A DNA stretch of 62,685 nt, counting the filler, from Schmidtea nova (Eukaryota): the NCBI GenBank assembly GCA_044892505.1. It is 6 parts of 2 records of this genome, joined end to end, with 100 filler letters (N's around TTAATTAATTAA, not from the genome) between each part and the next. Parts side by side here need not be neighbours in the genome. Positions count along the whole stretch, not along the records: positions 10,860 to 27,541 come from CM097883.1; 5 more parts are not named here. One strand, written 5' to 3'. The translations under genes were made by a program, and so were the position numbers. Shown in pieces: positions 13,553-35,672 of this stretch. A model generated the notes under the pieces. It had not been told where the DNA came from. It made no database searches and worked only from the letters and a program-made list of their open reading frames with translations. The stretch's first letter is position 1. Each line of letters begins with the position of its first letter.

Positions 13553-13602
<50 letters not shown>
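13553..13602. repeat. (TA)n microsatellite abutting the 5' end of the non-LTR element; other (TA)n tracts at ~12830, ~21670, ~25232 and ~62466
   Basis: Direct reading of the sequence. Confidence 0.95.
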
Positions 13603-13607
<5 letters not shown>

Positions 13608-13634
13608 TCTCTTTTAATTCTTCTCTTTTCAAAA

Positions 13635-16220
13635 ATGATTGCAACTCAAACTCAAATGCCTAATGGTGAATATAAATTTGGAGATGAACAATGTGTTCTC
13701 TCCTCTCGTGTGGATGAGCTGGATGCTTCTTTCAAGAAAATCCTTAGTAAGCTTGATTTGATTGTTAATTTTTTTAATTTAAATAACAATGAAACACAAT
13801 TATTTGATAAAAATAATGTTTCTTTTTTTGACAATCTTGCGAAATCGCAACGATTGTATGAGATTGGAAATGCTGATAGTGTTCGATCTGTGGATCAGCA
13901 CCCAAATGTTGATGGATTTACTTTTGGAGATAATAGGAGCATTTCTCTGGTCGGGGACTTGAAAGGGGATAAAATTGAGCCGTCCCAGATAAAAATTAGT
14001 TTATTTAAAAATGATAATAAAAATAAATCTCAGTTTATTTCAGCATATTCAGAAAAGGTTAATTTTCCAGAGCTTAAACTGGACAATTCGATCAATGGAA
14101 AATCAAATGAAAGTTTTTTTGTGGGAGTGGAAGTAGAAAAGAAGTCTGCTGAACTTGAGAAGTCAAATTCCATAGTTAAGATTAAGTTTGATGGGAAAAA
14201 TCCTGATATAAGTCATGTAAAACATTTTTCAAAGTTTGAACGTTTCTTAACGAGTTTCCCACGTCACCTTTATAAAAGAGAAAGACAAAAACTTTTTGAA
14301 TCATTCCCACAACTTTCCCAATTGATTAAATTAAGAGATTCAGCACAGAAATTTTCTAAAATAAATAATTTACTAGGTAAAATTCCGAGAAAGGACAACT
14401 TGCTGTTTATCGCTGGATTTAGTAAGCTCTTTTATAGAAATAGATATATTTGTGTCCTTGTTGAGTTTGGGCCCACTGATTACAAACCAAACGCTCTTGA
14501 TGGTAAAACATCTAAAAATAAAACTTACCTAATAGGCTCCAAAGTTATTGAACCCTTGAGTAACCGTAATAAGTTTATTCCTGCCTCTCTTTGCATAAAG
14601 AAGTTTCTTTATGCCCTCACAGATAGATTTTCAGGAACTATTACGATAAAGAATGTTAAGGATCGGGAGATCCGAATTAATAAAATTTTAGACGAACTAA
14701 AACAAAGTGGAGAGATTCCGAATTTCTTAATCAATTCTCAGTTAAAGTATTCAAATGGAGAGTTTCTTCTGTTAGACCTTATTAATTCCGATGAATTAGT
14801 TGGCGACAGCACTGATCTAAACCCAATCGATCTTTCTCGCTCTGAATTGGAAGAATTAACAAGATCCTTTCCTGAAATTCCAAAGCTCTACTTTATGGAA
14901 AACGTGAACAGGTATCCTGATTTATTATTTAATTTAATTAAAGAATTAAAAACTATAAAACATTTTCCTAATGAGATTTCATTTGTTGGGGGTAAATTTG
15001 TTAAAAATAAAATTTTTCAAAACTCTGTTGGACTGCACGATAATGGTGCGTCTGACATAATGTTTAATCTTGGCTTATTAGACTTTGTAGAAATGTCAAA
15101 TGTGGACATTGAGTTCAATAAATTATTAAAACAGCCTCAGTCACCTGAAAAATTAATTAATATAATATTTTACTTAAATTACCTAAACGTACAGGGATCT
15201 TTAAAATGCAAAATAAATTTATCATTTAATATATATGTTTATAATTACATTCGTAACTGCTTCCTAATGCACTCGATTGTGAAGCTTGAGAGTGTAGACT
15301 CCTTATGCTGCGATAATATTGAATCCTGGGCTATGGAACTAATTAAAAAACTACCTACCAACTCCTATTACAACAAAAGCTGCCAAGAGCGCTTCCTAAA
15401 ACTCAAACAAACTTTTATACTTCAAGAGATCGATAAGATAAACAACATCATCTCTCCAAAAACTATTTTGGATATTAACAACTTCTTTGATTCTATCGAT
15501 AATCTTTTGCCAAATAAAGCACAACAACTAACAGCACTTGAAAATATAGGACGTGGAATTAACGAATTCCAAGACGATTTGGATAACTCAAACACCTTGA
15601 AAGCGAAAAGACTCTTATTCTTTCTTATTAGAGATAAAAAAACTTTTCTTTTAAAAAATAAATTTACCTTCCGCGTTCCCAAGTACTGTAGAAAGATTTG
15701 TACTCCAGAAATGAGCGAAGGTATATCTAGAATCTTATGCTCTATTAAGCTAACTGTCAATGAAAAACTTGCTATAGAAAAGGTTGATAAGCCTGTGATG
15801 GGGAACAATGAGAATACTGAAAAGCTTGTAAACGAGCCTCTTTTTTCTATTCCTGAATGCGATGAAGCTGAAATAAATTACAATTTGGTAGAAAACCCTA
15901 CAAATAAATTTCCTGTCGATATTGATGAAAATTTGACATCAAACACTGAATTAATTGATAGTGAGTCTCAAGACTCTTCGAAAAGCCTATTAAAAAAACC
16001 AAACGTATGGCTATCAAAAACAAATGAAGTTGTGTGCCTGCACCAGTCTCAATATCTGCCCCAATCTCAACAGAGACTGATGCAGACAGCACATTTCCTA
16101 AAAAATTTAAACCATCTAAAATCACAAATATATTGCGTGATCCTAAAATATGGTTTACTGATGATGACATTGATAACTATCTTGAATGTCATATCAATGA
16201 CCCTAAATTTGCTCCAATAA
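13635..16220 (+). CDS. N-terminal ~800 aa of the retrotransposon polyprotein (function unknown)
   Basis: Open 861-codon frame; the reading frame appears to shift near 16030 into the protease region. Confidence 0.7.
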   Translation: MIATQTQMPNGEYKFGDEQCVLSSRVDELDASFKKILSKLDLIVNFFNLNNNETQLFDKNNVSFFDNLAKSQRLYEIGNADSVRSVDQHPNVDGFTFGDNRSISLVGDLKGDKIEPSQIKISLFKNDNKNKSQFISAYSEKVNFPELKLDNSINGKSNESFFVGVEVEKKSAELEKSNSIVKIKFDGKNPDISHVKHFSKFERFLTSFPRHLYKRERQKLFESFPQLSQLIKLRDSAQKFSKINNLLGKIPRKDNLLFIAGFSKLFYRNRYICVLVEFGPTDYKPNALDGKTSKNKTYLIGSKVIEPLSNRNKFIPASLCIKKFLYALTDRFSGTITIKNVKDREIRINKILDELKQSGEIPNFLINSQLKYSNGEFLLLDLINSDELVGDSTDLNPIDLSRSELEELTRSFPEIPKLYFMENVNRYPDLLFNLIKELKTIKHFPNEISFVGGKFVKNKIFQNSVGLHDNGASDIMFNLGLLDFVEMSNVDIEFNKLLKQPQSPEKLINIIFYLNYLNVQGSLKCKINLSFNIYVYNYIRNCFLMHSIVKLESVDSLCCDNIESWAMELIKKLPTNSYYNKSCQERFLKLKQTFILQEIDKINNIISPKTILDINNFFDSIDNLLPNKAQQLTALENIGRGINEFQDDLDNSNTLKAKRLLFFLIRDKKTFLLKNKFTFRVPKYCRKICTPEMSEGISRILCSIKLTVNEKLAIEKVDKPVMGNNENTEKLVNEPLFSIPECDEAEINYNLVENPTNKFPVDIDENLTSNTELIDSESQDSSKSLLKKPNVWLSKTNEVVCLHQSQYLPQSQQRLMQTAHFLKNLNHLKSQIYCVILKYGLLMMTLITILNVISMTLNLLQ

Positions 16221-16640
16221 AATGCTTTCAATTAGAAATCTTACGGGCAAATCTTTGCGAAACCATTTTTCGAATGCCAGACAGAGTAATATCTGCGCAA
16301 ACTCTATAAACTCAATAAATATTAATAAAACTCATTGGATTATTTTTGTGTATTGTAAAACTTCATTAACTTCATACTTTGTAGATCCTCTTTTCAACAA
16401 CCGCCATTCGTTGACCAATAGATTTGACGCTCTTCAAACTACAATAGTTTTGAATCGTCTTTTTAACCTTAAAGCTGCACTATTTTTCCACCCACATAAA
16501 AATTTTGTCTACCAAAATAATAACTATGACTGTGGGCCTTACATCTGTGCTTATGCTATGATGATAAGTGGTACATGGCAAAAATTTCCTTATGATTTTA
16601 TAGAAAATATCAGAAAAGATGTCTACCAATTTAAACTTAC
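16034..16640 (+). CDS. Ulp1/C48-like cysteine protease domain with intact catalytic residues (frameshift near 16300)
   Basis: WFTDDDIDNYL (cf. WLNDEVINFY), NKTHWIIFV (His), YFVDPL (Asp), QNNNYDCGPYICAY (Gln/Cys). Confidence 0.85.
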
Positions 16641-18212
16641 TTTAAATAACATAGTCCCAAAATCATCTGGAGGTGGTGAATCTAAACTCACTAACCCTAA
16701 GAGAGTGAAAAAAGACAAAACTCTAAATATTTCTAATAAACACGACCACATCTTCCTTATGAAACGTAATGCCTGCATCTCGTCTTTGATTACCTAATGG
16801 TTTAAAGACCATAAAGACATCTTGGTCCTACACTAAATATAATCTCTAGAAATAACTCATTTATTAGAGAAAATGTCACTTTTAAAAATTTTCTCGGGAT
16901 TAACCATGTCATCAGTGTTATCCCAAATGATAATTACTGGTGTTTATATCTTTTTTCTATTACACATGGTGCAAGTTACGTTTTTAACAATCAAGAAAAA
17001 CCTTTTTCTGACCGTTTACTTGGCATCGGCGAAAATATTACTGACTACTTGAATAAGTTCTTTCTATCAACAAACATTTCTTTTAAACCTAACCACGGCT
17101 TGGAACTGGTGCCCAACATCTCTGATGATACAATTCTCTTTGCGTCGGTTTTTATTAAGCTTCTTGAGAAACTTTTGTTTAATAAAGTTATTCATTTTTT
17201 AAATATACACAAATCATTAAACTCAATAAAATTAAGGGAAACAAATGAAATCTCTCAGAATCTAAACTCACATATTCTAAAATTTCGGATAAAATAATTT
17301 CAATGTTTTTTGATAATTTAAATTTACCCAAGACTTTTTTTTATTGAGTGCGACCATGTGTACGGCTATTCTTGACGATTGTACTCAACACATAAATGAT
17401 TTTCTGAATTTTGAAAATATATGCAAATCACAAATCATCTTTGCGATTGTTGCTCCCCCTAAACAACGTGAAATTTTGCTCATTCTCGATTATAGTGTTG
17501 ACACCTTTTATCTTGTAAACCCAACATCTTTAACTGTGAACGACAATTATCTGTCTCCTTGCAGAATTCTGAGAAATAAAATAAATGACATAAAAGATAC
17601 ACCTGGCCGCGTTTTGAATCTTTCTGAATGTCCCCATGACATCCGCAGCTCAGGTCTTGTTAGTAAAATTCTCTTGTGTGCGTTTATTAATAATTTCTCG
17701 AAAAATTTGCCCCTTGTAAATTTAAACTTGCGCGAGATTAGAGACGTGGTTGGCTCTTTGCTTATCTTTGTCAGGCAGCACGATAATATAGAGAACCCAA
17801 GTAACACTAAAATTATTCATAAAGCTATATTGAGAGTTCCGATAAAACAAAAGAGAACTAATGCTGAACTATTTTTAATTAAATGGGCAAATTATAGCAC
17901 AAATGAAATTATTCATGCGATTATGGAGCAATTCCCTGAAAAAGTGAAACCAGCTAAAAAACCATACTTGGGAACCAAAATTAAAACTTCTAAAATTAGC
18001 AAAAATAAATTAATCGATTTATTCATGAAAGATATGAAGTCAGCTGTCAATAAGGTCATCAACAATTTCGATGTACCGGCTCGACCAACTTTTCAGAACA
18101 TAGTTAAAAACTTTTCACATGAAACACCTGCACGTGGGCATTGGAAGAAACTATTTGACTTTTGTAAACACTCTCAAAATGTACTTCCTCTGAATGCTTC
18201 TCGAATAGGGAA

Positions 18213-19600
18213 GTGATGTATGAACTTAGGAGGGCTGACAACACTAGTCCTGGTATTGATGGATTACAATATCGTGACTTGTTGCGTCTAGATCCTGATG
18301 GTCATATACTTACTTTCTTGTTCAACAAGATCATTACAGAAAAGTCCATACCGGTTAGTTGGAAGGTCTACAAAACCACTCTAATCCCGAAACCTAATAA
18401 AAATGATAAATATTCAGATATATCATCCTGGCGCCCGATTGCCTTGCTATCCGTCATCTACAAAGTTTTTGCGTCCTGTATAACCACTCGTCTTGCATGC
18501 TGGATAAACTCTAATAAACTATTACATGTTGGACAAAAAGGTGGCTCCCAACATGAAGGTTGCGTTGAACACAACTCGATTCTGTCTGCTGCTCTGGAAC
18601 ATTCCAAATATAGTAAAAACTGTCCTCTTTCCATTGCTTGGCTCGACATAAAAGATGCTTTTGGTAGTGTCCCACATGATTACATGTGGTCCTTACTCCG
18701 ATACACTGGGGTAAGTGAAGACTTTACCTCCATCTTACAATTTTTATATTCTGACACGAGCTCCTTCTATAGTTGTGGTCCTATTCTGACACCAAAGATC
18801 CCAATTAAAAAGGGTGTCAAGCAAGGATGTCCCATCTCCATGATTTTGTTTGCTTTGGCGATTAATCCTGTGTTGGAAGCTGTTTCCAGAACAGTCTGTG
18901 ATGCTTTTGCTATTGGAGAATCATCTGTCAAAATTCTCGCGTATGCAGATGACATCGCATTTTCGCTAAATCTCCTAATGACCTGCAAAAACTCATTAAC
19001 ACTGCTGTCACAACTGCAACTAATATAGGCTTTGAATATCGGCCAGAGAAATGTGCTTATCTGCAACTTCCTAGAATTCACATTGACAGTGAAATTTCAA
19101 TCAATGGAGTTAAAATTAAAAAAACTACTGTCTAATGAATTTTATCAATACCTAGGTGTGCCAGTTGGCGAAGGAACTGACCAAAGTCCTTACGACATTC
19201 TACTGGAGGCACTCAAAGACACCAAAAAACTTGCTGATTCGGATTTGCTTGGGTAGCAAAAACTTAAAGCTTACAAAGTATTTATCCATTCTCGCTTGAT
19301 CTTCCCTTTTAGAACCCGTGAAATTAAAACTAGTGCACTTTCAAAATCTTATGATAATAAAAATCTTTCAGTTAACATCACGAGCCAGTTAAGGAAAACC
19401 TTAAGAAAAATGCTGCTTTTGCCTAATCACTCGGAAGTGAGTTATTTCTACAATTCAACTGAAAATGGGGGAGCAAACTGTGTTGATCTCCTCGACGAAT
19501 ATCACACACAGACTATCACACACTTTTTTCGATTAATCACGTCACAGTGTGACTTTGCAAGGAAAATTAATCTTGACTCTTTAGCTTTTGTCACCAGTCC
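18213..19600 (+). CDS. Non-LTR reverse transcriptase domain (frameshifted at ~18960 and ~19125; TAG at 19254)
   Basis: SPGIDG, LIPK, WRPIAL, LDIKDAFGSVPH, GVKQGCPIS, AYADD, PEKC, YQYLGV, GGAN. Confidence 0.95.
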
Positions 19601-19642
19601 ACGTGTTGGGATAAAAAATCCAACTCTTCAGGAAAGTCTTGA

Positions 19643-20641
19643 ATGGCTCAATGGAAAAGAGTCTCTTTCCCCCCATTCTGGAAAGAAAACTCGATTTCAA
19701 AGAGTTGGATTGCGATTGCTTTTTTTGAGAAGACGCACGACATCAACATCACGTTTACTATCACCAATAATGTACTATGTCTCTATATTAACACGAACGC
19801 ACGTGGTACATGTATTGTAACTCCCGACGAACGTGAGACCACGGCAAAAGTGTTGCACTTAGCGCTCAATGATTCATACTTGGTTAAATGGGAAAAAAGC
19901 TGTGTCTCAAACATTATCGCTTCAGCTGTAAAGCTTTCACCGACAGTAAACAAAGCTATCTATCGCAGTGATTTATCCGAGTTTGCTTGGAACTTTGTCC
20001 ATAGAGCACGCACCAACACTCTTTCCACCCTTGCAAAGCCTTATAATAGTGGAGAGGAAAGACTCTGTCGTCGATGTCATGATGAGGATGAAACCTCACC
20101 ACATGTACTTCAATCGTGCAAAGTTCATATGACTTTGGGCTCTGAACGACACGATGCTTGCCTTAAACTCATTTCTAATCCTCTCCAACTTAATAAAAAC
20201 CTAATTGTTGTTGTCAACCATGCCTGTTCACTTGTTCCGAGTTCTAAAGAGCGGGTGGATTTGCTGATAACTGATGTTCTTAGAAAAAGAATCTTCCTTG
20301 TTGACCTTAAATGTCCGAGTGATTCTTTATGTAACTTTGAGCGTGTAAATTTATTGAATTTGGAAAAATACAACTCTCTGAAAATCGATATTCAAACTGT
20401 CAAGTCTGACTTTAAAGTTGAACTCGATATTTGCATTATAGGCGCTCTTGGCTCTTTTCCTGTAGAAACTCCTCAGATCCTTCAGAAAATTGGCATAAAT
20501 AAAGGCCAGGTGGCTGGGTTATTAAAAAAGTGTGCAATTAGTAATATTGCAATCTCGGCAAAACGATGGTACTTCCACAAGAATGGTACACTGCCCATTT
20601 TCGAAAACGAGGAGCAATTCATTCGAATTAACAACAACTAA
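19643..20641 (+). CDS. CCHC zinc knuckle plus restriction-like endonuclease (RLE) C-terminus
   Basis: CRRCHDEDETSPHVLQSC, RHD, RVDLL...LVDLKCP, EKYNSL, IIGALGS. Confidence 0.92.
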   Translation: MAQWKRVSFPPFWKENSISKSWIAIAFFEKTHDINITFTITNNVLCLYINTNARGTCIVTPDERETTAKVLHLALNDSYLVKWEKSCVSNIIASAVKLSPTVNKAIYRSDLSEFAWNFVHRARTNTLSTLAKPYNSGEERLCRRCHDEDETSPHVLQSCKVHMTLGSERHDACLKLISNPLQLNKNLIVVVNHACSLVPSSKERVDLLITDVLRKRIFLVDLKCPSDSLCNFERVNLLNLEKYNSLKIDIQTVKSDFKVELDICIIGALGSFPVETPQILQKIGINKGQVAGLLKKCAISNIAISAKRWYFHKNGTLPIFENEEQFIRINNN

Positions 20642-20748
20642 ACGAGTCTGAATTCAACCGATGTCGTTCGATCTCGGAAGTTAAGCAGGTTAAGGCCTCG
20701 TTAGTACTTGGATGGGTGACCGCCTGGGAATACGAGGTGCTGTGAAAC
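20642..20748 (+). rRNA. 5S rRNA: 5S rRNA gene or gene segment, nt ~13-119, followed by a TTTT Pol III terminator; 5' ~12 nt diverged
   Basis: gatctcggaagttaagcagg...ttagtacttggatgggtgaccgcctgggaatac matches the eukaryotic 5S consensus (box A/IE/box C). cctcg/cgagg pairs by compensatory changes. T-runs start at 20749 and 20761. Confidence 0.93.
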
Positions 20749-20887
20749 TTTTCAAACTTCTTTTTTTTTTTTTAAATTTATTTCCTTTTCCTTTTTTATT
20801 TTTGATAACAATTACTTAACTTTGTTAGATATTTATTTAATTTTTTTTTAAATTTAAATTAAAAGTTTGAAATATCATAGCATTGTT

Positions 20888-21007
20888 TAAATAATCTCTT
20901 TTAATTCTTCTCTTTTCAAAAATGATTGCAACTCAAACTGAAATGCCTAATGGTGAATATAAATTTGGAGATGAACAATGTGTTCTCTCCTCTCGTGTGG
21001 ATAAGCT
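20888..21007 (+). repeat. 120-bp direct repeat of 13601-13720 (118/120 identical), including the ORF start
   Basis: Manual alignment; differences at repeat positions 53 and 116. Confidence 0.95.
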
Positions 21008-21748
21008 TGTTAGTTTTGGAGGGTTTTTTTTTCTTGATTCACTTTTATTTACCTTTTTTCTTTCCTTTCTTAATTATTTCTTATTTACTACTTCATTTTG
21101 TTTATAAATTTCTATCTTTGACCTGAAAACATCTTACCCTCTTTTTCTTGACGTTTTGCTCCGGTGAATAAACACTGTTTCCTCGTCCAGGAACAGCGTC
21201 TAGCTAATTATTATTTTTCCTTTAGCTCAATCAAAAGAAAATTTTAATCTTTAAAGAAAACTTACAGATAATTACTGTACATTTTCGAATACTTGACAAA
21301 ATCTGGAGAAACTTACTAAGAACTGAAAATCCGGAATTTAAATCTAAAGAAGAATACCTTTACCACTGATGACAATACAAACAATTTCAAGTGACAATAG
21401 AACACCAAAATGATTCCGATTGTTCGAAATCAAAGAGAAGTTTATCCAATATTGCAATGCCGGAATCCAAATCCGATGAAGATCACATTCACTGCCAGGG
21501 ACAATACAGGCAAATTCGAGTGACAATCGAGTCGAGAAAACCCTGAATATCATCCAATTGATCCAGATATTTCAGACTCTTCTGCCATAGAATATTGTCA
21601 GTATGGGATGCTCCATGTTGAGCTATGTCCCATTGGAAAATTATCATATTTTATTGAAATAAAATTTTATTATATATATATATATATATATATTATCAAT
21701 AGTTCCCATAATGATGACTATAGATCAAAATTTTTTTTATAAACAATA

Positions 21749-21781: not shown

Positions 21782-22137
21782 GTATTTCCTATGATATATA
21801 TATACACCGTGTTTCAATGAATCCGTTCACCTATAATGCAGGTGAGTGAGATACATCACGGGTTATTATTACTCATTTTTTAAAACTTATTGGAATTAGC
21901 CATTTTAAAATGTCTTTCAGGTAATTTTTGTAATTAGGATAACTTTTAAGTCTTTTATTTTGATCTCATAATGATATGAGATCACTATAAAAGCTTTAAA
22001 AGGTTATCTTTATTCATCAATTTTATTTTTATTTAATTTTTAAATAATTAGTAGAAAATGTTTATGATATTATGGAATTATTAACATCAAAGGTAAGTAA
22101 AAATTCAATTCTAACTAATATTTATTTGATAAATACA

Positions 22138-23974: not shown

Positions 23975-24493
23975 TTAAACAATTTGATTAATATTTTTAT
24001 ACATAACTATATTTAATTTAATATATTGTTTGACATCTTTGAATAGGGCGTACCAGGTGACTTTCTGGCGGAGTAGTGCGAAAGTGAATTTATTGTCGGG
24101 GTAATGAAGATTATGAAGGTTAGAGAAACGCTTCTTCGCGGAGTGATTCGTGTAGTATGGGCACAGAGTGTTGGTAAAGGATGTGTTGTAATGTATGCCG
24201 TCAATGAGTTTGTGGGAGTATTTGAACCTGGAAATGTCGATCTCGGAGGGTGGTTTGGAAGCTAGGGGGTATAACGAGAAGATGAGAAAAAAGGATATTG
24301 AGTTTAAAATCGCGCGTGAAAAACAGTCTGCAATTACGTTGTCACCTCCTGCAATGTGTTTAATCTCGAAATCAAAAGATGATAGAAAAACGAGTTGACG
24401 GAACACCCTATTTGAAGGATCTTTCATGGTGAGGCAGTGTAGGAGAGGTTTGTGGTTGGTGAATATTGTGAAATGTCTACTCTCTAAGAAGTG
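23975..24493 (-). mobile_element. Ty3/gypsy RNase H-linker-integrase fragment
   Basis: HFLESRHFTIFTNHKPL...RQLVFLSSFDFEIKHIAGGDNVIADCFSR. Confidence 0.85.
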
Positions 24494-24519
24494 CCGGAAA
24501 TGTTTAACGGACAGTTTTC

Positions 24520-24940
24520 TGTATTGTTCTTTGCTCTGTTCTCGTTTATATTTTCAAACGTCATGGGTGAAATGCCACATACATTGGAAAAGACTGCCCG
24601 TCTTCTCTGTATTCGAGTTTCAGAGCGGAGTCAATTAATGGGATTTAGCGTTGTTTTCAGTCATATCGTTGTTTGTGAATATGTGAGTGTGAGAGTTTTG
24701 GGTCCGTGTGTTTGCCTCATTTTTTGCGGTTTAAGTAAATTAACTGATGTGGTTGTTGATGGTGTTTATTTTCTTCTTTTGATTTGTGTTCTATACTCGT
24801 TTAATTTTTCAAATGTCATGGGCGTAATGCCACATACTTTGGACAAGACTGACCGTCTTTTCTGTACTCGAGTTTTAGAGCATTTTCAATTGGGGATTAT
24901 GGATTTCGTTTTCAATCATTCTGTTGTTTATAAATATGAA
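24520..24940 (+). mobile_element. Decayed Penelope-like GIY-YIG endonuclease fragment, tandemly duplicated (~260-bp period)
   Basis: LVYIFK.HG*NATYIG plus KTARLLCIRVSE; second copy KCHGRNATYFG plus KTDRLFCTRVLEH. Confidence 0.7.
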
Positions 24941-25157
24941 AATATTTATAATATATTCTTAAAAAAAATATTTTTTTGTATAAAAATAAAAGAATATTAT
25001 ATTTTTAAGATTAATTTATTTAAATTAAAAACTTTTAAATAGATATAAATTTTTTGACTATAAAAAATTTAAAATATATATTTTATTTTAAAAATTAATA
25101 CTAATTTGTTCGAATAAATCGATTTATGTGATTTATATTTCGATGTAAGATTGGGTA

Positions 25158-25198
25158 GCACCTGATGAAGAGAATTAAGTTCTCGAAATATATTGTGC
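25158..25198 (+). ncRNA. Minimal type I hammerhead ribozyme (Penelope pLTR)
   Basis: gcac-CTGATGA-a-gagaa ttaag ttctc-GAAA-tatatt-gtgc; palindromic stem III AATATATT; ~250 nt downstream of the GIY-YIG remnant. Confidence 0.8.
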
Positions 25199-25227
25199 AA
25201 AATATATATTTGGATTCTCGTTTGTTG

Positions 25228-25264
<37 letters not shown>

Positions 25265-25371
25265 AAATTTGAAATTCGAATTTGGCTTACTATAGCAAAC
25301 GCTATAGTAAGCCAAATCGACAGAAATAAAAAAATCAATGAAAAAAGAAATTTAAAAATATTTCAAAGAAT

Positions 25372-25665
25372 ACAACTATTTGTCCAATCTCAAATCCAAT
25401 TTATTAAGAAGATCTATTAAACTTTTAAAGAAACTTTCAAAGAAACTCCCCATTTGCCAAACACAACAACTATTTTGCCCAATCTCAAATCCAATTTATA
25501 AAGAAGAACTATTAAACTTTTAAAGAAACTTTCAAAGAAACTCCCCATTTGACAAACACAACAACTATTTTGTCTAAGCTCAAATCCAGTTTTTAAAGAG
25601 ACTCTTAACGGAACTTAAAGAAACTTTTTAAAACAACTTCCCATTTGTCCAACTTAACAACTATT
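25372..25665. repeat. About 3 tandem copies of a ~95-bp unit
   Basis: acaactatt recurs at ~25372, 25466, 25561 and 25656 with conserved intervening sequence. Confidence 0.8.
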
Positions 25666-25783
25666 TTTAACCCAAACAATCTAATACAAGTAATTTATCG
25701 TGGTTTTGTAGTTAGACTTTACATTACTTGTTTGATATTAATATATTTTATTAGTTTATTTTATTATTTGAATTTATTATTAT

Positions 25784-27122
25784 TGTACTCGCACGACACA
25801 GCATACACCCCGAGTGTCGGCACATTGCTAACGTCAGACTCTCTCGGGCACTTCCATTCCTCTTACAATGCGAATTAATTATAATGCGAATTCATGAGAA
25901 ATGAAATAAATTTTCTGGGACACACACTAAACGACAAAGGAACACAGCCGATCGAAAACAAAATAAACAATATAAAAAACTACAAACTACCTACAAACAC
26001 AAGAGAGTTGAGGAGATTTTTAGGAATGGTAAACTTCTACCATTCTTACATCCCAAACTGCAGTATATTACTAGCACCATTAAATGACATTATCACAACA
26101 AAACGAAATGTCACAATAAACTGGACTCAAAAAACAACCGAAACATTCGAGAAAGCCAAAGAAAGTCTTTCAACGGCAACACTACTCGGATATCCAGATC
26201 CAGAAATAGAATACCAATTAACTACAGACTGCTCAGGTTTCGCAATGGGTGCAACAATTTTCCAGGAAAACAAATTCGGAAAACAACCACTAGGTTTCTC
26301 CTCTAAAAAGCTAAAGTCACACCAAACAAGGTATTTGACTTTCGACGGAGAACTCCTAGCAATACATGATTCAATCAAACACTTCCAACATTTACTCGAA
26401 GGGCGAACTTTCAAAATATTCACCGACCACAAACCGCTAACAAACGCAATTGAAATGAAAAATCCTTCACCAAGGCAGATCAAACAAATCAACCTCATTT
26501 CACAATTCAATTGTACAATAAACTGTGTAGCGGGAAAATCAAACATAGCAGCAGACGCCTTATCCAGAACCGAAAGTGACATAATTCCTTAGAATTCGGA
26601 GAAATAATTGATTTGGATCAAATCAAACCCAAACAAAACGAAACAATAAGGAAACTGTCTACTAAACACAGCCTGAAACTCCAAGAACTTAACAGAGTAT
26701 GGTACGATGTATCCAACGAAAGCAACAGACAAATTCTACTACCCGAAGAATTCGGCCAAAAATGCATCGAAAAGATCCACTCAATTAATCACCCGGGAAA
26801 CAAAACAACTTTCGAATTAATTCACAACAATTATATATAGCCTGACATGAGGAAAGAGGTAAAAAAGTTTGTCAAAAGCTGCCATAATTGCCAAATAAGC
26901 AAACCGACAAAGAAAATCAAAACAGAAAAAGTAAACTTCCCAAGTAGTCAACTCTTCGAGGTGATTCACATAGACATAGTAGAACCGTTACCACCGAACA
27001 ACGGGTACAACTACTTACTAACAATCATCGACAGAAAGACAAACTGGTTTGAAATCGTCCCAATAAAAGTGTCGGCACATTGCTAACGTCAGACTCTCTC
27101 GGGCACTTCCATTCCTCTTACA
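25784..27122 (+). mobile_element. Ty3/gypsy pol fragment (RT C-terminus, RNase H, integrase N-terminus) bracketed by an LTR-like 55-bp direct repeat
   Basis: FLGH, LRRFLGMVNFY, TDCSGFAMGA, TDHKPL, ADALSR, HSINHPG, CHNCQ, IHIDIV. Identical repeats at 25813-25867 and 27068-27122 end in TACA. Confidence 0.88.
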
Positions 27123-27710
27123 CTACAAAAAATAGACTACCAAACAAACATTAANNNNNNNNNNNNNNNNNNNNNNNNNNNNNNNNNNNNNNNNNNNNNN
27201 NNNNNNNNNNNNNNNNNNNNNNNNNNNNNNNNNNNNNNNNNNNNNNNNNNNNNNNNNNNNNNNNNNNNNNNNNNNNNNNNNNNNNNNNNNNNNNNNNNNN
27301 NNNNNNNNNNNNNNNNNNNNNNNNNNNNNNNNNNNNNNNNNNNNNNNNNNNNNNNNNNNNNNNNNNNNNNNNNNNNNNNNNNNNNNNNNNNNNNNNNNNN
27401 NNNNNNNNNNNNNNNNNNNNNNTTTCAAGGTCAGTTAAAAAAGTAGTTTGTATACTGACACCGAAATGAGTGTAAAGTGACATTTTTATTCCATTTTTCA
27501 AATCACCACTTTGAATTTTAAAACTCAGATGAGTTTTTGAGNNNNNNNNNNNNNNNNNNNNNNNNNNNNNNNNNNNNNNNNNNNNTTAATTAATTAANNN
27601 NNNNNNNNNNNNNNNNNNNNNNNNNNNNNNNNNNNNNNNNNGTCTGATGACTTGTTTGTTTTTAACAAGTAAAGCTTGTGATTATTTGTGATACCCAGTG
27701 CAAATCCCCA

Positions 27711-30779: not shown

Positions 30780-33090
30780 TTGTTCCTTCTGAAATAGTTG
30801 TTCTTTCTGATGACGAACCCATCATAGATGTTCAATATGGTGGTTTCCTTCTTCCTAATGTTAAGTTTGATTTAAGAAAATTTAAGAAAATCACACGACA
30901 CATTTGGCTTTGAAAACTGTAATTTTACACGATATTTAAGTCAATAAATTAAATGACGTTATTAATGAAATGGGGTCTGTCAAAATACAATTTTGTGTTG
31001 ACGTAGAGTTTGAAAAAGATGGTGAATTTTAATCATTTATCATTTCAAACTCTGCAAGACCTATGAGTGATACGTTTTTTGATGAAGGTATTACTCTTTT
31101 AAATGAAAAAATATCTTAAATTAATGAAAAGGGAAGTAATTGGGTTATCAACAAACTCAACGAAATCCATTTTGTATTAACTAAATTTGCAGAAATAAGT
31201 CGATTGAGTGGCAGAGGTCATATAAATACTCCAATTTCTTTATTGACAAAACATTGTACAGTAAATGCAATTAATTCCGATGATTTATGTTTCATTTATA
31301 GCATCTTAGCTATTTTGAAATATGATGAGGTAGATAATAATAGAAATAGAACAAATAATTATAACCTTTCTGATCTTGTCTTAAACCCTTCAGAAATGCC
31401 TATGAGACTGTAATATTTCAAAATTTGAGGCTAAAAACCCTGAACTTGTATTTAATGTTCTTTCTTATAATGAAGATGCTTTGCTTGATATTTTGGCAAA
31501 TCCTGAAGTTTTTAAACATCCCTGTGTTGACATTATCCACAGGTCGAAAGTTGTTGGGGGAATTCCAATTAATTTAATTTTGTTGGAAAGTGGTGATGCA
31601 TATCATTATATTGCAGTCACCGATCTTGAAAGGCTTTTGAATCTTGACGATCATTCAATTTCCAATACTCGCATTCAAAGTATATGGTGTCATCGATGCT
31701 TGAATAGATTTAGAAAACAGGAAGCATTTAATTGTCATCAACAGTTGTGTGCTAAAAATCAATTAGGTACAACTCTTTATACTTTACCAAGATATAAAGA
31801 TTTACAATTTAGTAATTGGGGCAAAACAATTTCCTCCCTTTTGTTGTTTACGCCGATTTTGAGGCAATCTTACCTGTCTTACATGTTCCAATATCTTCCG
31901 GTCTTTTACTTGTAAATAACTTTACTGGCGAAAATATTTACAAGAGTTTCTTAGGTCTTGATTGCGTGACTAATTTTCTTACTGAAATTAGTGATATTTC
32001 TGAAACTATTGTTTATCCCTTTTATAAAAATAATTACAAAAAAGCACTTTTAATGGCAGCGGCTAATAAACGAGCATTTTCAATGGCGACAATTTGTTAT
32101 CTTTGTAAGAAAACCTTAGTCAAACTGGTGAGGGATCATGATCATTACACTGGTGAATTTTTGGGTGCAGCATGTAATTCTTGTTTCAAATCCTGTCGCT
32201 TAAACAAGTTTTTACCCGTTATTTGTCATAATTTAAATAATATTACTTGCACCATATTCTTAAATATGGTTTGGCTAATTTTACAACTTGGAAGGTTTCT
32301 TGTATTCCAACAACCAGTGAAAAAAGGATTGGTGATTTAACCATTAAATTCATTGATTCTCTCCAGTTTGTTAACTCTAGCTTAAATGACGCCGTTAAAA
32401 CTCTTACTTGTTTGCCTTTGATTAGATCTGAATTGTTGATTGTAAGGGTATTTTTCATTATGATTTTGCCACATCTTTAGAAATCCTTAACAACACTAAA
32501 GAATTGCCACCAAAATGGGAAGGTGTTAAACAAGACGGATATGATAAGGCATTGGTGATTTGGAGGGAATCCCAGTGTCAAACTCTGTGTGACTATATGA
32601 TGGTCTACCTTAAACTGGATGTTTTCTTCTTGTTAATTTCTTTCAACAGTTTAGGGCTAAATCTATAGCTCACAGTAGACTTGAGCCTTTGAATTTCTTG
32701 GGGATTTCATGTATGTCGTGGGCTTCTGCGCTTATTACCTTGGATGAACCTCTTGAGTTGCTCCAGGATATGGAGATTTATAATTTTTTCCGAAGGGGGA
32801 TCTGTGGTGGATTGACATTTGTCAACAAGCATCATGTAGTATCCTCCGAAACGACCGAACTTTTATACATTGATATAAATAATTTATACGGGTGGGCTTT
32901 AAGTCAAAAATAACCTTATGGTGAATTTAGTTGGATCACAGATTAAAATAAATTAAATAAATAAAATATATTAATGGATGCTGATTTAGCTATTTTAACT
33001 TATGGCGTGATTTTTGAAGTGGATCTTGAAATCCCTTCAGAAATTTACGATAAATTAAATGATTTCCCGGTTGCAACAGAGAAAATGTGT
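30780..33090 (+). pseudogene. polB: Decayed protein-primed family B DNA polymerase of a Maverick/Polinton (copy 1, 3'-truncated)
   Basis: GSNWVINKL, NAINSDDLCFIYSILA, VVYADFEAIL, RDHDHYTGEFLGAACNSC, YIDINNLYGWALSQK; many stops and frameshifts. Confidence 0.9.
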
Positions 33091-35672
33091 ATTTTTATGT
33101 AAAAGTTCTTGAATTCTAACCAATTTTAACCAAGTAAGGTTTTTTCATGTAAAATTGATCGGAGAAGACCAATTTTTCATGTTTTTACATTTTGACCTTT
33201 TTTTGTTCGCCATTGAATTCTCAGTAGATTGGTATAAAAATTATTGAAATCTTTGCATTTTTGAAAGCTTTGGAAAAAATGATGAAAAAAATAATTTATT
33301 TTATATTTTTTGCAAAAATTATGAAAAAATAAAAAATATATTAAATTTCAGTATTACATCATCAATTGCGTAATAAATACACGTTTATATACATTTTTGA
33401 AGTTATTACAAAATTACGTAACAAAAATTTACGAACCGCTATGTAATAAATATTGTAGTATTATGTGATGATTACGTAACATATAATTAATTACGCAATG
33501 ACTACATACTACACAAAATATTGTGTAATGATTATGCACCATGTTAAGTGTCACATAATGATAATGTAATTTGTAAAGTATTGCGTAATTTTGGGTGGAG
33601 ACGGGAGTAAACTGTATATTGATTATGTAATATATACAGTCTAGGGATAAATGGCTTGTGCTAGATCAATCACTACTCTCTACTAATGTCATTNNNNNNN
33701 NNNNNNNNNNNNNNNNNNNNNNNNNNNNNNNNNNNNNNNNNNNNNNNNNNNNNNNNNNNNNNNNNNNNNNNNNNNNNNNNNNNNNNNNNNNNNNNNNNNN
33801 NNNNNNNNNNNNNNNNNNNNNNNNNNNNNNNNNNNNNNNNNNNNNNNNNNNNNNNNNNNNNNNNNNNNNNNNNNNNNNNNNNNNNNNNNNNNNNNNNNNN
33901 NNNNNNNNNNNNNNNNNNNNNNNNNNNNNNNNNNNNATAAATATATTTATTATTACTTTTATTATAATATTATCATTTCTTTTATTATCATTCGTTTTAT
34001 TATTAAATTACAACTGTCATTTAAAAACTTTAACCAAATTTTTAAATAAAAAATATAAAACAATTCACAAATCTTACATTTGGATATATTTCCTCCATTC
34101 CTCGTATTAATTATCGTCGCGGTATTAAAATCATTTCCATTATTCATCGCGGAATTATGCGTCGCAGCATTAAAAGTGTTCCTCGGGACATTAAAGTCAT
34201 TCATCACGGAATTTAAATTTTGTGTAAAGCATTTGTTAAATATTTAATAATAATAATAATTTTACAATTTGCATGCGTTTCATTACCATTTAATTATATT
34301 ACTTTCATTTAAAATATTCATTTCATTTAATCCATTTTCTATAATTGGTATTAATACATATTAATAATAATCAAGAAATCTACTATTGAAGCCATTCGAG
34401 CCAATTAAAATAGTTGTTCCAGTCATTGCCCCACTTGGAACATTTACATTATTATTTCTTAACATTACTGAAAGAATAATAGTTTAAAAATAATAAAATA
34501 AAATAAACTTACTACTGACACCATTGACATTCATATATTTTACGTTTGAAATATTGCTGAACATATCGAATAATTGATTATAATTAATGATAATAAAGTT
34601 TTGTGATATAGTAAAATGTGATTAAAATAATGAAAACATTACCTTATATCGGCTATTGCATAATATTAATTCAGTCAATGAAATTCGTTTATAGATAGAA
34701 AAAATTCGCACGCACACATACAACATTGATTTACATACTGTGTGTATTGTCATAAGCGCATGTAATACATGAATGTTACGTCATACATAATATTTAGTCA
34801 CACACATGATTACTCACACAAGATTACCACAGAGGTCATGCATCTCAATTGCAAAGCAATTAATTTTGTATTGAAAATAATTAATTTTTCAAATAATCGG
34901 AAAACTTTGTCAAATTATCAGAAAAATCTTCTACGTCCTTAACNNNNNNNNNNNNNNNNNNNNNNNNNNNNNNNNNNNNNNNNNNNNTTAATTAATTAAN
35001 NNNNNNNNNNNNNNNNNNNNNNNNNNNNNNNNNNNNNNNNNNNCGAAAGTAGTAGACGGAATTCCTATTAACTTGATTCTTTTGCAAAATGGTGACTCTT
35101 TTCATTATATAGCAGTAACCAATCTTGATAGGCTTTTAAATCTTGACAATAAATCAATATCTGGTACTCGTATTCAAAGTATATGGTGCCATCGGTGCTT
35201 GAATGGGTTTAGATATCAAGATTCATTTGATCGTCATCAAGAGTTGTGTTCTAAAAATCAATTAGGCACAACTCTATATACTTTACCTAAAAATCCTTAT
35301 TTGACATTTAGTAATTGGGGCAAAACAATTACTCCACCTTTTGTAGTTTACACCGATTTTGAGGCAATCTTACCTGCTGATGATAAGTACTTTCAAAGAC
35401 ATGTCCCAATATCTGCCGGTCTTTTACTTGTAAATAATTTCACTGGAGAAAAAATTTACAAGAGTTTCTTGGGTCTTGATTGCGTTACTAATTTCCTTGC
35501 TGAAATTAACAATATAGGTGAAGAAATTGTTTTTCCTTTTTATAAAAACAATTACAAAAAAACACTTATTATGACATTCGAAAATAAAAGATCATTTGCC
35601 TCATCTACTATTTGTTATCTTTGTAAAAATCGCTTAGTTAATCCGGTTAGAGACCATGATCATTACACTGGT

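Follow-up and report, generated by a model that had tools for sequence, protein, structure and literature searches.

A decayed retrotransposon of Schmidtea nova with a restriction-like endonuclease ends directly on a 5S rRNA gene remnant

NeSL-related families of non-LTR retrotransposons are described as targeting SL, U2, 28S and tRNA-Arg/Glu/Pro genes as well as (TG)n repeats (Kojima and Jurka 2015, PMC4640811); an initial annotation of the locus studied here had named SL, 28S and U2, a list that lacked the tRNA genes and microsatellites. The same account places Utopia, an element with a restriction-like endonuclease (RLE), and Keno, an APE element, at one common U2 site, and it describes Phytophthora Utopia as missing the 5′ U2 piece, while the string "5S r" does not occur in its main text (PMC4640811). 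Mutsu inserts approximately 20 nt from the 5′ end of 5S (PMC5340908), and the annotation's view of Mutsu as the 5S-specific retroelement needs to be widened by the DNA transposon Dada-5S, which also targets 5S (PMC8869645). In R2Bm, about 250 nt of the 3′ UTR are essential (PMC3747384). No RLE element in 5S was found in the literature searched, a search that Repbase and Fell et al. 2025 lay outside, and none is named in the available text of PMC10946416, PMC8869645, PMC13580325, PMC13586686 and PMC3747384. As far as we could find, 5S has been reported as a target only for elements unrelated to the RLE type.

Anatomy of the element

The window, that is, the whole stretch of 62,685 nt that was analysed, contains a broken two-ORF non-LTR retrotransposon of the RLE type that spans positions ~13,600–20,646 on the + strand and whose 3′ end lies on a 5S remnant. 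The stretch was matched in six public runs of three studies, four of which (X1, X2, X5 and X6) were compared, all as contigs. The features are as follows.

13601..13634, + strand: leader 5′ of ORF1, the most 5′ sequence assignable to the element
13635..16220, + strand: ORF1, ~860 aa, no recognised family (covered by ~6%-diverged contigs of X5 and X6)
16034..20641, + strand: ORF2, broken in the window copy (homologues are single proteins of ~1,500 aa)
16315..16700, + strand: first Ulp1-like (C48) protease domain, with His, Asp and Q-x4-DC residues present
16830..17750, + strand: two more predicted Ulp1-like domains, degenerate, without catalytic residues (profile–profile matches in the homologue alignment)
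18168..19028, + strand: reverse transcriptase core (PF00078, E 9.7e-21)
20066..20119, + strand: CCHC zinc knuckle, CX2CX8HX4C (motif)
20147..20641, + strand: restriction-like endonuclease and C-terminus up to the TAA at 20639–20641 (RH, R-x-D, D-x-K and KY motifs)
20642..20646, + strand: non-coding bases between the stop codon and 5S identity (3–5 nt)
20647..20748, + strand: 5S rRNA gene remnant, nt 18–119, with internal control region (Rfam, bulk 5S comparison)
20749..20773, + strand: T4 and T13 runs, Pol III terminator-like (sequence)
20888..21007, + strand: second copy of the leader and ORF1 start, 120 nt, 98% identical to 13601–13720, fused to other repeated DNA

An (AT)n run (13552–13601) lies directly 5′ of the leader, and the true 5′ end of the element was not found. 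ORF1 was assigned to the element because the X5 and X6 contigs, ~6% diverged, cover it in line with ORF2; it has neither a Pfam family nor an atlas match, none of 7,999 candidates proved homologous, and its predicted fold was unusable (pLDDT 31). Late in ORF1 (15980–16040), contigs of all four runs have one base more than the window. With this extra base, ORF1 would end a few codons ahead of the ORF2 start and in its frame, which suggests a reinitiation or read-through layout. Compared with the homologue P0001, the window ORF2 carries at least five frame changes and three stops; four homologues nevertheless align in order from 16034 to 20620. An MP[AV] N-terminus, present in 10 of the 19 aligned proteins, corresponds to the GTG-CCT-GCA start region of the window, indicating that the two-ORF layout is a family trait.

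The protease family PF02902 was matched in the window just under the cut-off (E 5e-4) and also in 16 of 19 homologues, and hhalign comparisons for the extra Ulp1-like repeats gave 88% (E 3e-6), 74% (E 3e-5) and 17% (E 1.5e-3). Three Ulp1-like domains thus stand in tandem (16315–17750), catalytic residues being found in the first only; the homologues P0152 and P0164 also show two. Self-processing or SUMO removal as the role of the protease would be speculation.

The last ORF (19643–20641) encodes both the CX2CX8HX4C knuckle and an R2-type RLE. The RLE region gave a profile match to R2 structures (E 1.7e-32), and the predicted fold of the knuckle–RLE part (pLDDT 95) superposed on R2Tg (E 3e-12, TM 0.69). 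No APE domain was matched by Pfam in the element's ORFs or in 19 homologues, no N-terminal zinc finger was seen in ORF2, and self-BLAST detected no LTRs or other terminal repeats, the only repeat being the 120-nt ORF1 piece. The order found, a reverse transcriptase followed by a CCHC knuckle and a PD-(D/E)xK-type endonuclease with neither APE nor LTRs, is that of an RLE-type non-LTR element. After the last W..H motif, the window ORF has 21 residues compared with 5–27 in nine of its closest homologues, indicating that the ORF is of natural length and not cut short.

The 13 best homologues, on contigs of 4–8 kb, share 50–63% reverse transcriptase (RT) identity with the window element, and named NeSL/Utopia-like proteins share 33–42%. 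In a FastTree RT tree of 120 rows (4 short ones dropped), which contained no R2, R4, HERO, R5 or LIN reference and in which the NeSL and Utopia labels were inferred from host names, the window grouped with P0001 and P0002 (0.98) within an unnamed clade (0.96) that joined Caenorhabditis and Utopia-like proteins (0.93). This placement is consistent with, but does not prove, membership of the NeSL clade in the broad sense. The homologue searches returned no R5 or LIN sequence by name, and a profile search with 12 homologues gave no named close relative. Relatives accompanied by DNA were found for 0 of 28 candidates in viral contigs, 0 of 31 in prokaryote genomes and 29 of 71 in metagenome contigs, with coverage from RT to RLE only in L001 and L002. 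These two nearest loci with DNA (28–30% identity) continue into ordinary 3′ sequence with no Rfam match (8 of the 29 loci scanned). No homologue C-terminus read into 5S (blastx, 274 proteins, best E 0.13), and a 22-nt 5S pattern occurred in no stretch of the viral and genome contigs.

Several other features of the window were recorded. The 20888–21007 copy joins other repeated DNA at 21007/21008, and an identical fusion is present in one X6 loose end, which leaves 20888–21640 as a possible non-autonomous derivative or repeat family of its own. A hairpin like Rfam mir-753 (49 bits, cut-off 62) lies at 21942–22003 and 48643–48918, in a repeat with an inverted copy; mir-753 is a planarian family, so that the hairpin hints weakly at the host group. 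The regions 23975–26592, 31816–32340 and 36198–44491 contain fragments of an LTR-element RNase H, an endonuclease VII-like ORF, a hAT transposase, a Polinton-type DNA polymerase B and DUF4371, and no host gene was recognised among their Pfam matches. Long near-perfect palindromes (97–99%) at 1–405 and 42063–42266 are probably assembly or amplification artefacts. Five 100-nt linkers, each composed of 44 N, a 12-nt all-frame-stop palindrome and 44 N (10760–10859, 27542–27641, 34944–35043, 41167–41266 and 57846–57945), look artificial, so that neighbourhood across them means nothing.

The 5S junction and its recurrence

Rfam matched 5S at 20630–20748 on the + strand with 71 bits against a cut-off of 38, the sole gathering-level RNA family match in the window; no ribozyme or tRNA was matched. 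The initial annotation had described an RLE ORF ending with the TAA at 20639–20641 and 5S just after it, on which Rfam and the ORF calls agree. Its start of 5S at nt ~13 was corrected to nt 18 (20647) because the head of bulk 5S before 20647 differs from the window: a bulk 5S contig of run X2 has the loose end CCATACTAA (nt 9–17), with which the window agrees at 5 of 9 positions. If 20646 is a private change, the earliest possible start is nt 16 (20645), placing the junction between 20644/20645 and 20646/20647. The separate head that bulk 5S shows before 20647 means that complete 5S genes exist and that the element takes the place of nt 1–17. Where the annotation saw no separate 3′ UTR, five bases (20642–20646) separate the stop from 5S, and with 5S identity starting at nt 16–18 the element's own 3′ UTR amounts to only 3–5 nt. 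The annotated Pol III control region and T-run terminator were borne out, as the positions of box A, IE and box C, which we take from Xenopus numbering, all fall inside the remnant, and T4 (20749–20752) and T13 (20761–20773) both lie 3′ of 5S. The 3′ end of 5S is a genomic T-run, not poly(A). Compared with bulk 5S, the remnant differs at one base (20663) and keeps helix IV/V pairing.

The annotation had further proposed that the 3′ end of the element mimics the displaced 5S head, on the basis of a 7/10 match to the 5S 5′ end. The arithmetic was right, but the match is significant (p 0.004–0.007) only for a window chosen after the fact, this core being equalled by 10 of 4,581 windows. Over the full 17-nt head, for which nt 9–17 were observed and nt 1–8 predicted from helix I, the agreement was 8/17 (p 0.057–0.092 against three local backgrounds), and 285 of 4,574 ORF2 windows reached 8/17 or better; mimicry was therefore not established. 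Nor was a stop codon within 5S-derived sequence; only 4 of the 9 helix I pairs would be preserved. No stable structure appeared in the element's last 200 nt (z −0.38), and in the predicted structure of a chimeric RNA (20630–20752) nt 1–13 were unpaired (z −1.04).

We also searched the window for further pieces of 5S. It holds no second 5S, and the copy is not in a visible 5S array. Neither a 5′ junction on 5S nor a matching empty site was seen. No 5S head was found upstream of either ORF1 start (p 0.05–0.93), tests for a degenerate head ahead of 20888 or of the (AT)n run were not significant (p 0.38, 0.93, 0.048 and 0.70), and a 14-nt likeness upstream of both ORF1 starts gave p 0.06–0.44. Such a lone 5S outside any array, with no head upstream and with only 3–5 nt of 3′ UTR otherwise left to the element, would fit a rather improbable alternative in which the 5S body (nt 18–119) and T-run are captured cargo that now serves as the element's 3′ UTR, insertion taking place at other, perhaps T- or AT-rich, sites. 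Fish R2 families with a 28S-derived 3′ UTR offer a precedent (PMC5035012). The captured 28S of these R2 families is described as diverged (PMC5035012), whereas the 5S remnant still scores 71 bits with helix IV/V kept; in addition, the break sits where Mutsu also inserts.

An accidental join in the assembly is hardly credible. The gapped short-read scaffold has 15 N runs and five linker-like joins within the window, but no N occurs between 10860 and 27154, a stretch that includes the element and the junction, and the same join is present in an independently assembled contig of another study. This contig (X5 record 21, study P2) is a single 2,331-nt sequence that runs from 18438 to 20748, from the RT through the whole 5S remnant, at ~6% divergence (135 other letters and 5 gaps; of its length, ~2,200 nt belong to the element and 102 nt to 5S). 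With the join repeated in a diverged contig from another study, an accident of assembly does not account for it. The probability that the two would lie within 20 nt of each other by chance is at most ~5e-4, on rough assumed copy numbers.

Divergence from the window was 0.8–1.6% in the pieces checked of X1 and X2 and 5.5–6.1% in those of X5 and X6. The comparison covered 24 of 604 loose ends, 15 of 51 joints and 32 of 1,646 pieces, beyond which non-5S 3′ flanks could lie. Among the matches listed, a contig bridging the junction was present in one of the four runs (X5), and none of the 24 loose ends showed a non-5S continuation of the element's 3′ end. In X2, a contig with the bulk base at 20663 aligned over at least 68 nt on both sides and hence crosses the junction, according to our own reading of contig-end distances, which was calibrated on X5 records 14, 17 and 20. 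The X6 piece at 20663 (end distance 12) fits an element contig that stops ~30 nt into the shared 5S, but also fits a piece that starts at 20652. The same 3′ junction in 5S is thus present in the window copy and X5 record 21 and implied in X2, a small sample. In two X2 contigs, 5S is joined at 20680/20681 (5S nt 51/52) to an unrelated, AT-rich end; this may be another element that entered box A of 5S, or a 5S pseudogene that is truncated.

The base at 20663 bears on the cargo alternative, since contigs of X2, X5 and X6 at this site have the bulk base, not that of the window. On the other side, a minority of the depth at 20663 lacks the bulk base in X1 (2,032 of 147,290) and X2 (641 of 139,994), and the X5 element contig crosses the 5S from end to end while another 5S contig of greater depth (~287, aligned over ~94 nt) also covers 20663, as captured cargo would allow. 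As two X5 contigs cannot share 31-letter words, this pair indicates either a distinct element-linked 5S version or a second organism in the run.

Several frame breaks of the window copy are missing from the contigs of all four runs, so that intact family members likely exist, as judged from these contigs. The absence of these breaks in X5 fits an active family rather than a shared fossil, and in this respect speaks against a single old insertion of a non-specific RLE element in one 5S gene, inherited or duplicated as DNA. We consider such a history quite unlikely, a random landing on a 5S gene being a priori rare (at most ~5e-4), even though the join is documented in no more than two to three copies, the ~6% divergence could be that of one orthologous locus in two species, and some NeSL/R2-type families are described as non-specific (PMC5035012). 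The X5 contigs do not cover 21113–21640; this would speak against simple orthology, although a gap in contig coverage is no proof. All four runs showed depth rising toward the 3′ part, a pattern that 5′ truncation would produce, but depth in contigs cannot be read as copy number.

Insertion model and implications

What was observed, at this locus and in the runs, comprises the anatomy, the junction, the absence of the 5S head and the recurrence of the join in a second, diverged copy. The reading that we favour, and hold to be probable, is that this is a decayed RLE element whose family inserts sequence-specifically into 5S genes near nt 16–18 by target-primed reverse transcription (TPRT). The 5S-targeting RLE family proposed initially thus remains the best reading, given the second diverged copy, though the rider that its 3′ end mimics 5S was not established. 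This targeting reading gains because NeSL-related families already target Pol III and snRNA genes. By analogy with R2, a bottom-strand nick made by the RLE near nt 15–17 of 5S DNA would free a 3′ OH, which would prime reverse transcription of an RNA whose end lies at the stop codon or just beyond it. The 5S gene would be left split, with nt 18–119 and the terminator downstream of the element, and the 5S head would probably be deleted or displaced at the 5′ junction, as in oomycete Utopia.

With only 3–5 non-coding bases available, candidates for a protein-binding RNA signal are the last coding region and read-through 5S; the lack of unusual structure in the last 200 nt keeps read-through 5S among them. 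A more far-reaching version, which we put forward as doubtful, is that the lineage gave up its own 3′ UTR and uses 5S as both landing site and 3′ end. Transcripts would then read through into the 5S body, whose RNA would provide the protein-binding structure and pair with the nicked primer strand, and Pol III might start in the element's last codons (20630) via the internal promoter to yield a chimeric 5S-sized RNA. Read-through copies would scatter 5S remnants if 5S acted as the 3′ end, which would explain the orphan 5S locus.

If the targeting reading is true, 5S rDNA joins the targets of RLE retrotransposons. The window family and Mutsu at nt 16–20 of 5S would then represent a second convergence of unrelated endonucleases on one spot of a small-RNA gene, after Keno and Utopia on U2. 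A 3′ UTR of 3–5 nt would challenge the rule drawn from R2 that the protein chooses its template via a structured 3′ UTR, and with no visible zinc finger or Myb in ORF2, target recognition must differ from that of R2. Since R2-type proteins are under development for site-specific gene insertion, a natural 5S-directed enzyme would be directly testable. As to novelty, a 5S preference may already stand in Repbase or in Fell et al. 2025, a survey that may list 5S among insertion preferences. The closest described systems can be set beside the element one by one.

Comparison with known systems

Mutsu has an APE endonuclease and belongs to the Tx1 clade. Zebrafish MutsuDr1–7 resemble the window element in being two-ORF non-LTR retrotransposons with a 5S remnant directly downstream, but they are described as L1-type (Repbase L1-2/3/5_DR), with a 3′ poly(A) and an unrelated enzyme architecture (PMC5340908). 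Identity with Mutsu was rejected, the window element having a C-terminal RLE, no APE and no poly(A). Other mobile DNA is likewise associated with 5S sequence in the accounts of Dada-5S, SINE3 and Cassandra. Dada differs in being a DNA transposon with its target in the 3′ half of 5S (PMC8869645); SINE3 and Cassandra, as described, are non-autonomous, and their 5S sequence serves as a promoter, placed at the head or in LTRs and not at the 3′ end.

R2 supplies the model mechanism, TPRT, and the knuckle–RLE fold matches R2Tg (TM 0.69), whereas R2 has one ORF, N-terminal zinc fingers with Myb, and a 28S target. R5 has two ORFs, as does the window element. In R5/LIN of planarians, the likeness lies in target switching, with 28S and Pol III genes targeted in one lineage, while the LIN 3′ ends that are listed have AT-rich or poly(T) tails before the target, unlike the window element (PMC4640811).

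Within the NeSL clade, two assignments were tried and rejected. NeSL-1 proper does not fit, as the 3′ flank is 5S and not a spliced-leader exon and the branch is separate from the Caenorhabditis proteins; Utopia does not fit, as the 3′ flank is not U2 from nt 39 and Utopia is described as usually having one ORF with N-terminal zinc fingers (PMC4640811). The likeness to the clade as a whole extends over the RT followed by a CCHC knuckle and RLE, the N-terminal Ulp1-like protease shared with nematode NeSL and Utopia-1_TSP, and a 5′ piece of the target gene that is often not found (PMC4640811). As in the descriptions of NeSL-1, Utopia, R5/LIN and NeSL-1_TV, the 3′ end lies flush on a truncated multicopy small-RNA gene. 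Set against the clade members so described, the window element is distinguished by its probable 5S target, its two ORFs, the tandem array of three Ulp1-like domains and a 3′ UTR of 3–5 nt.
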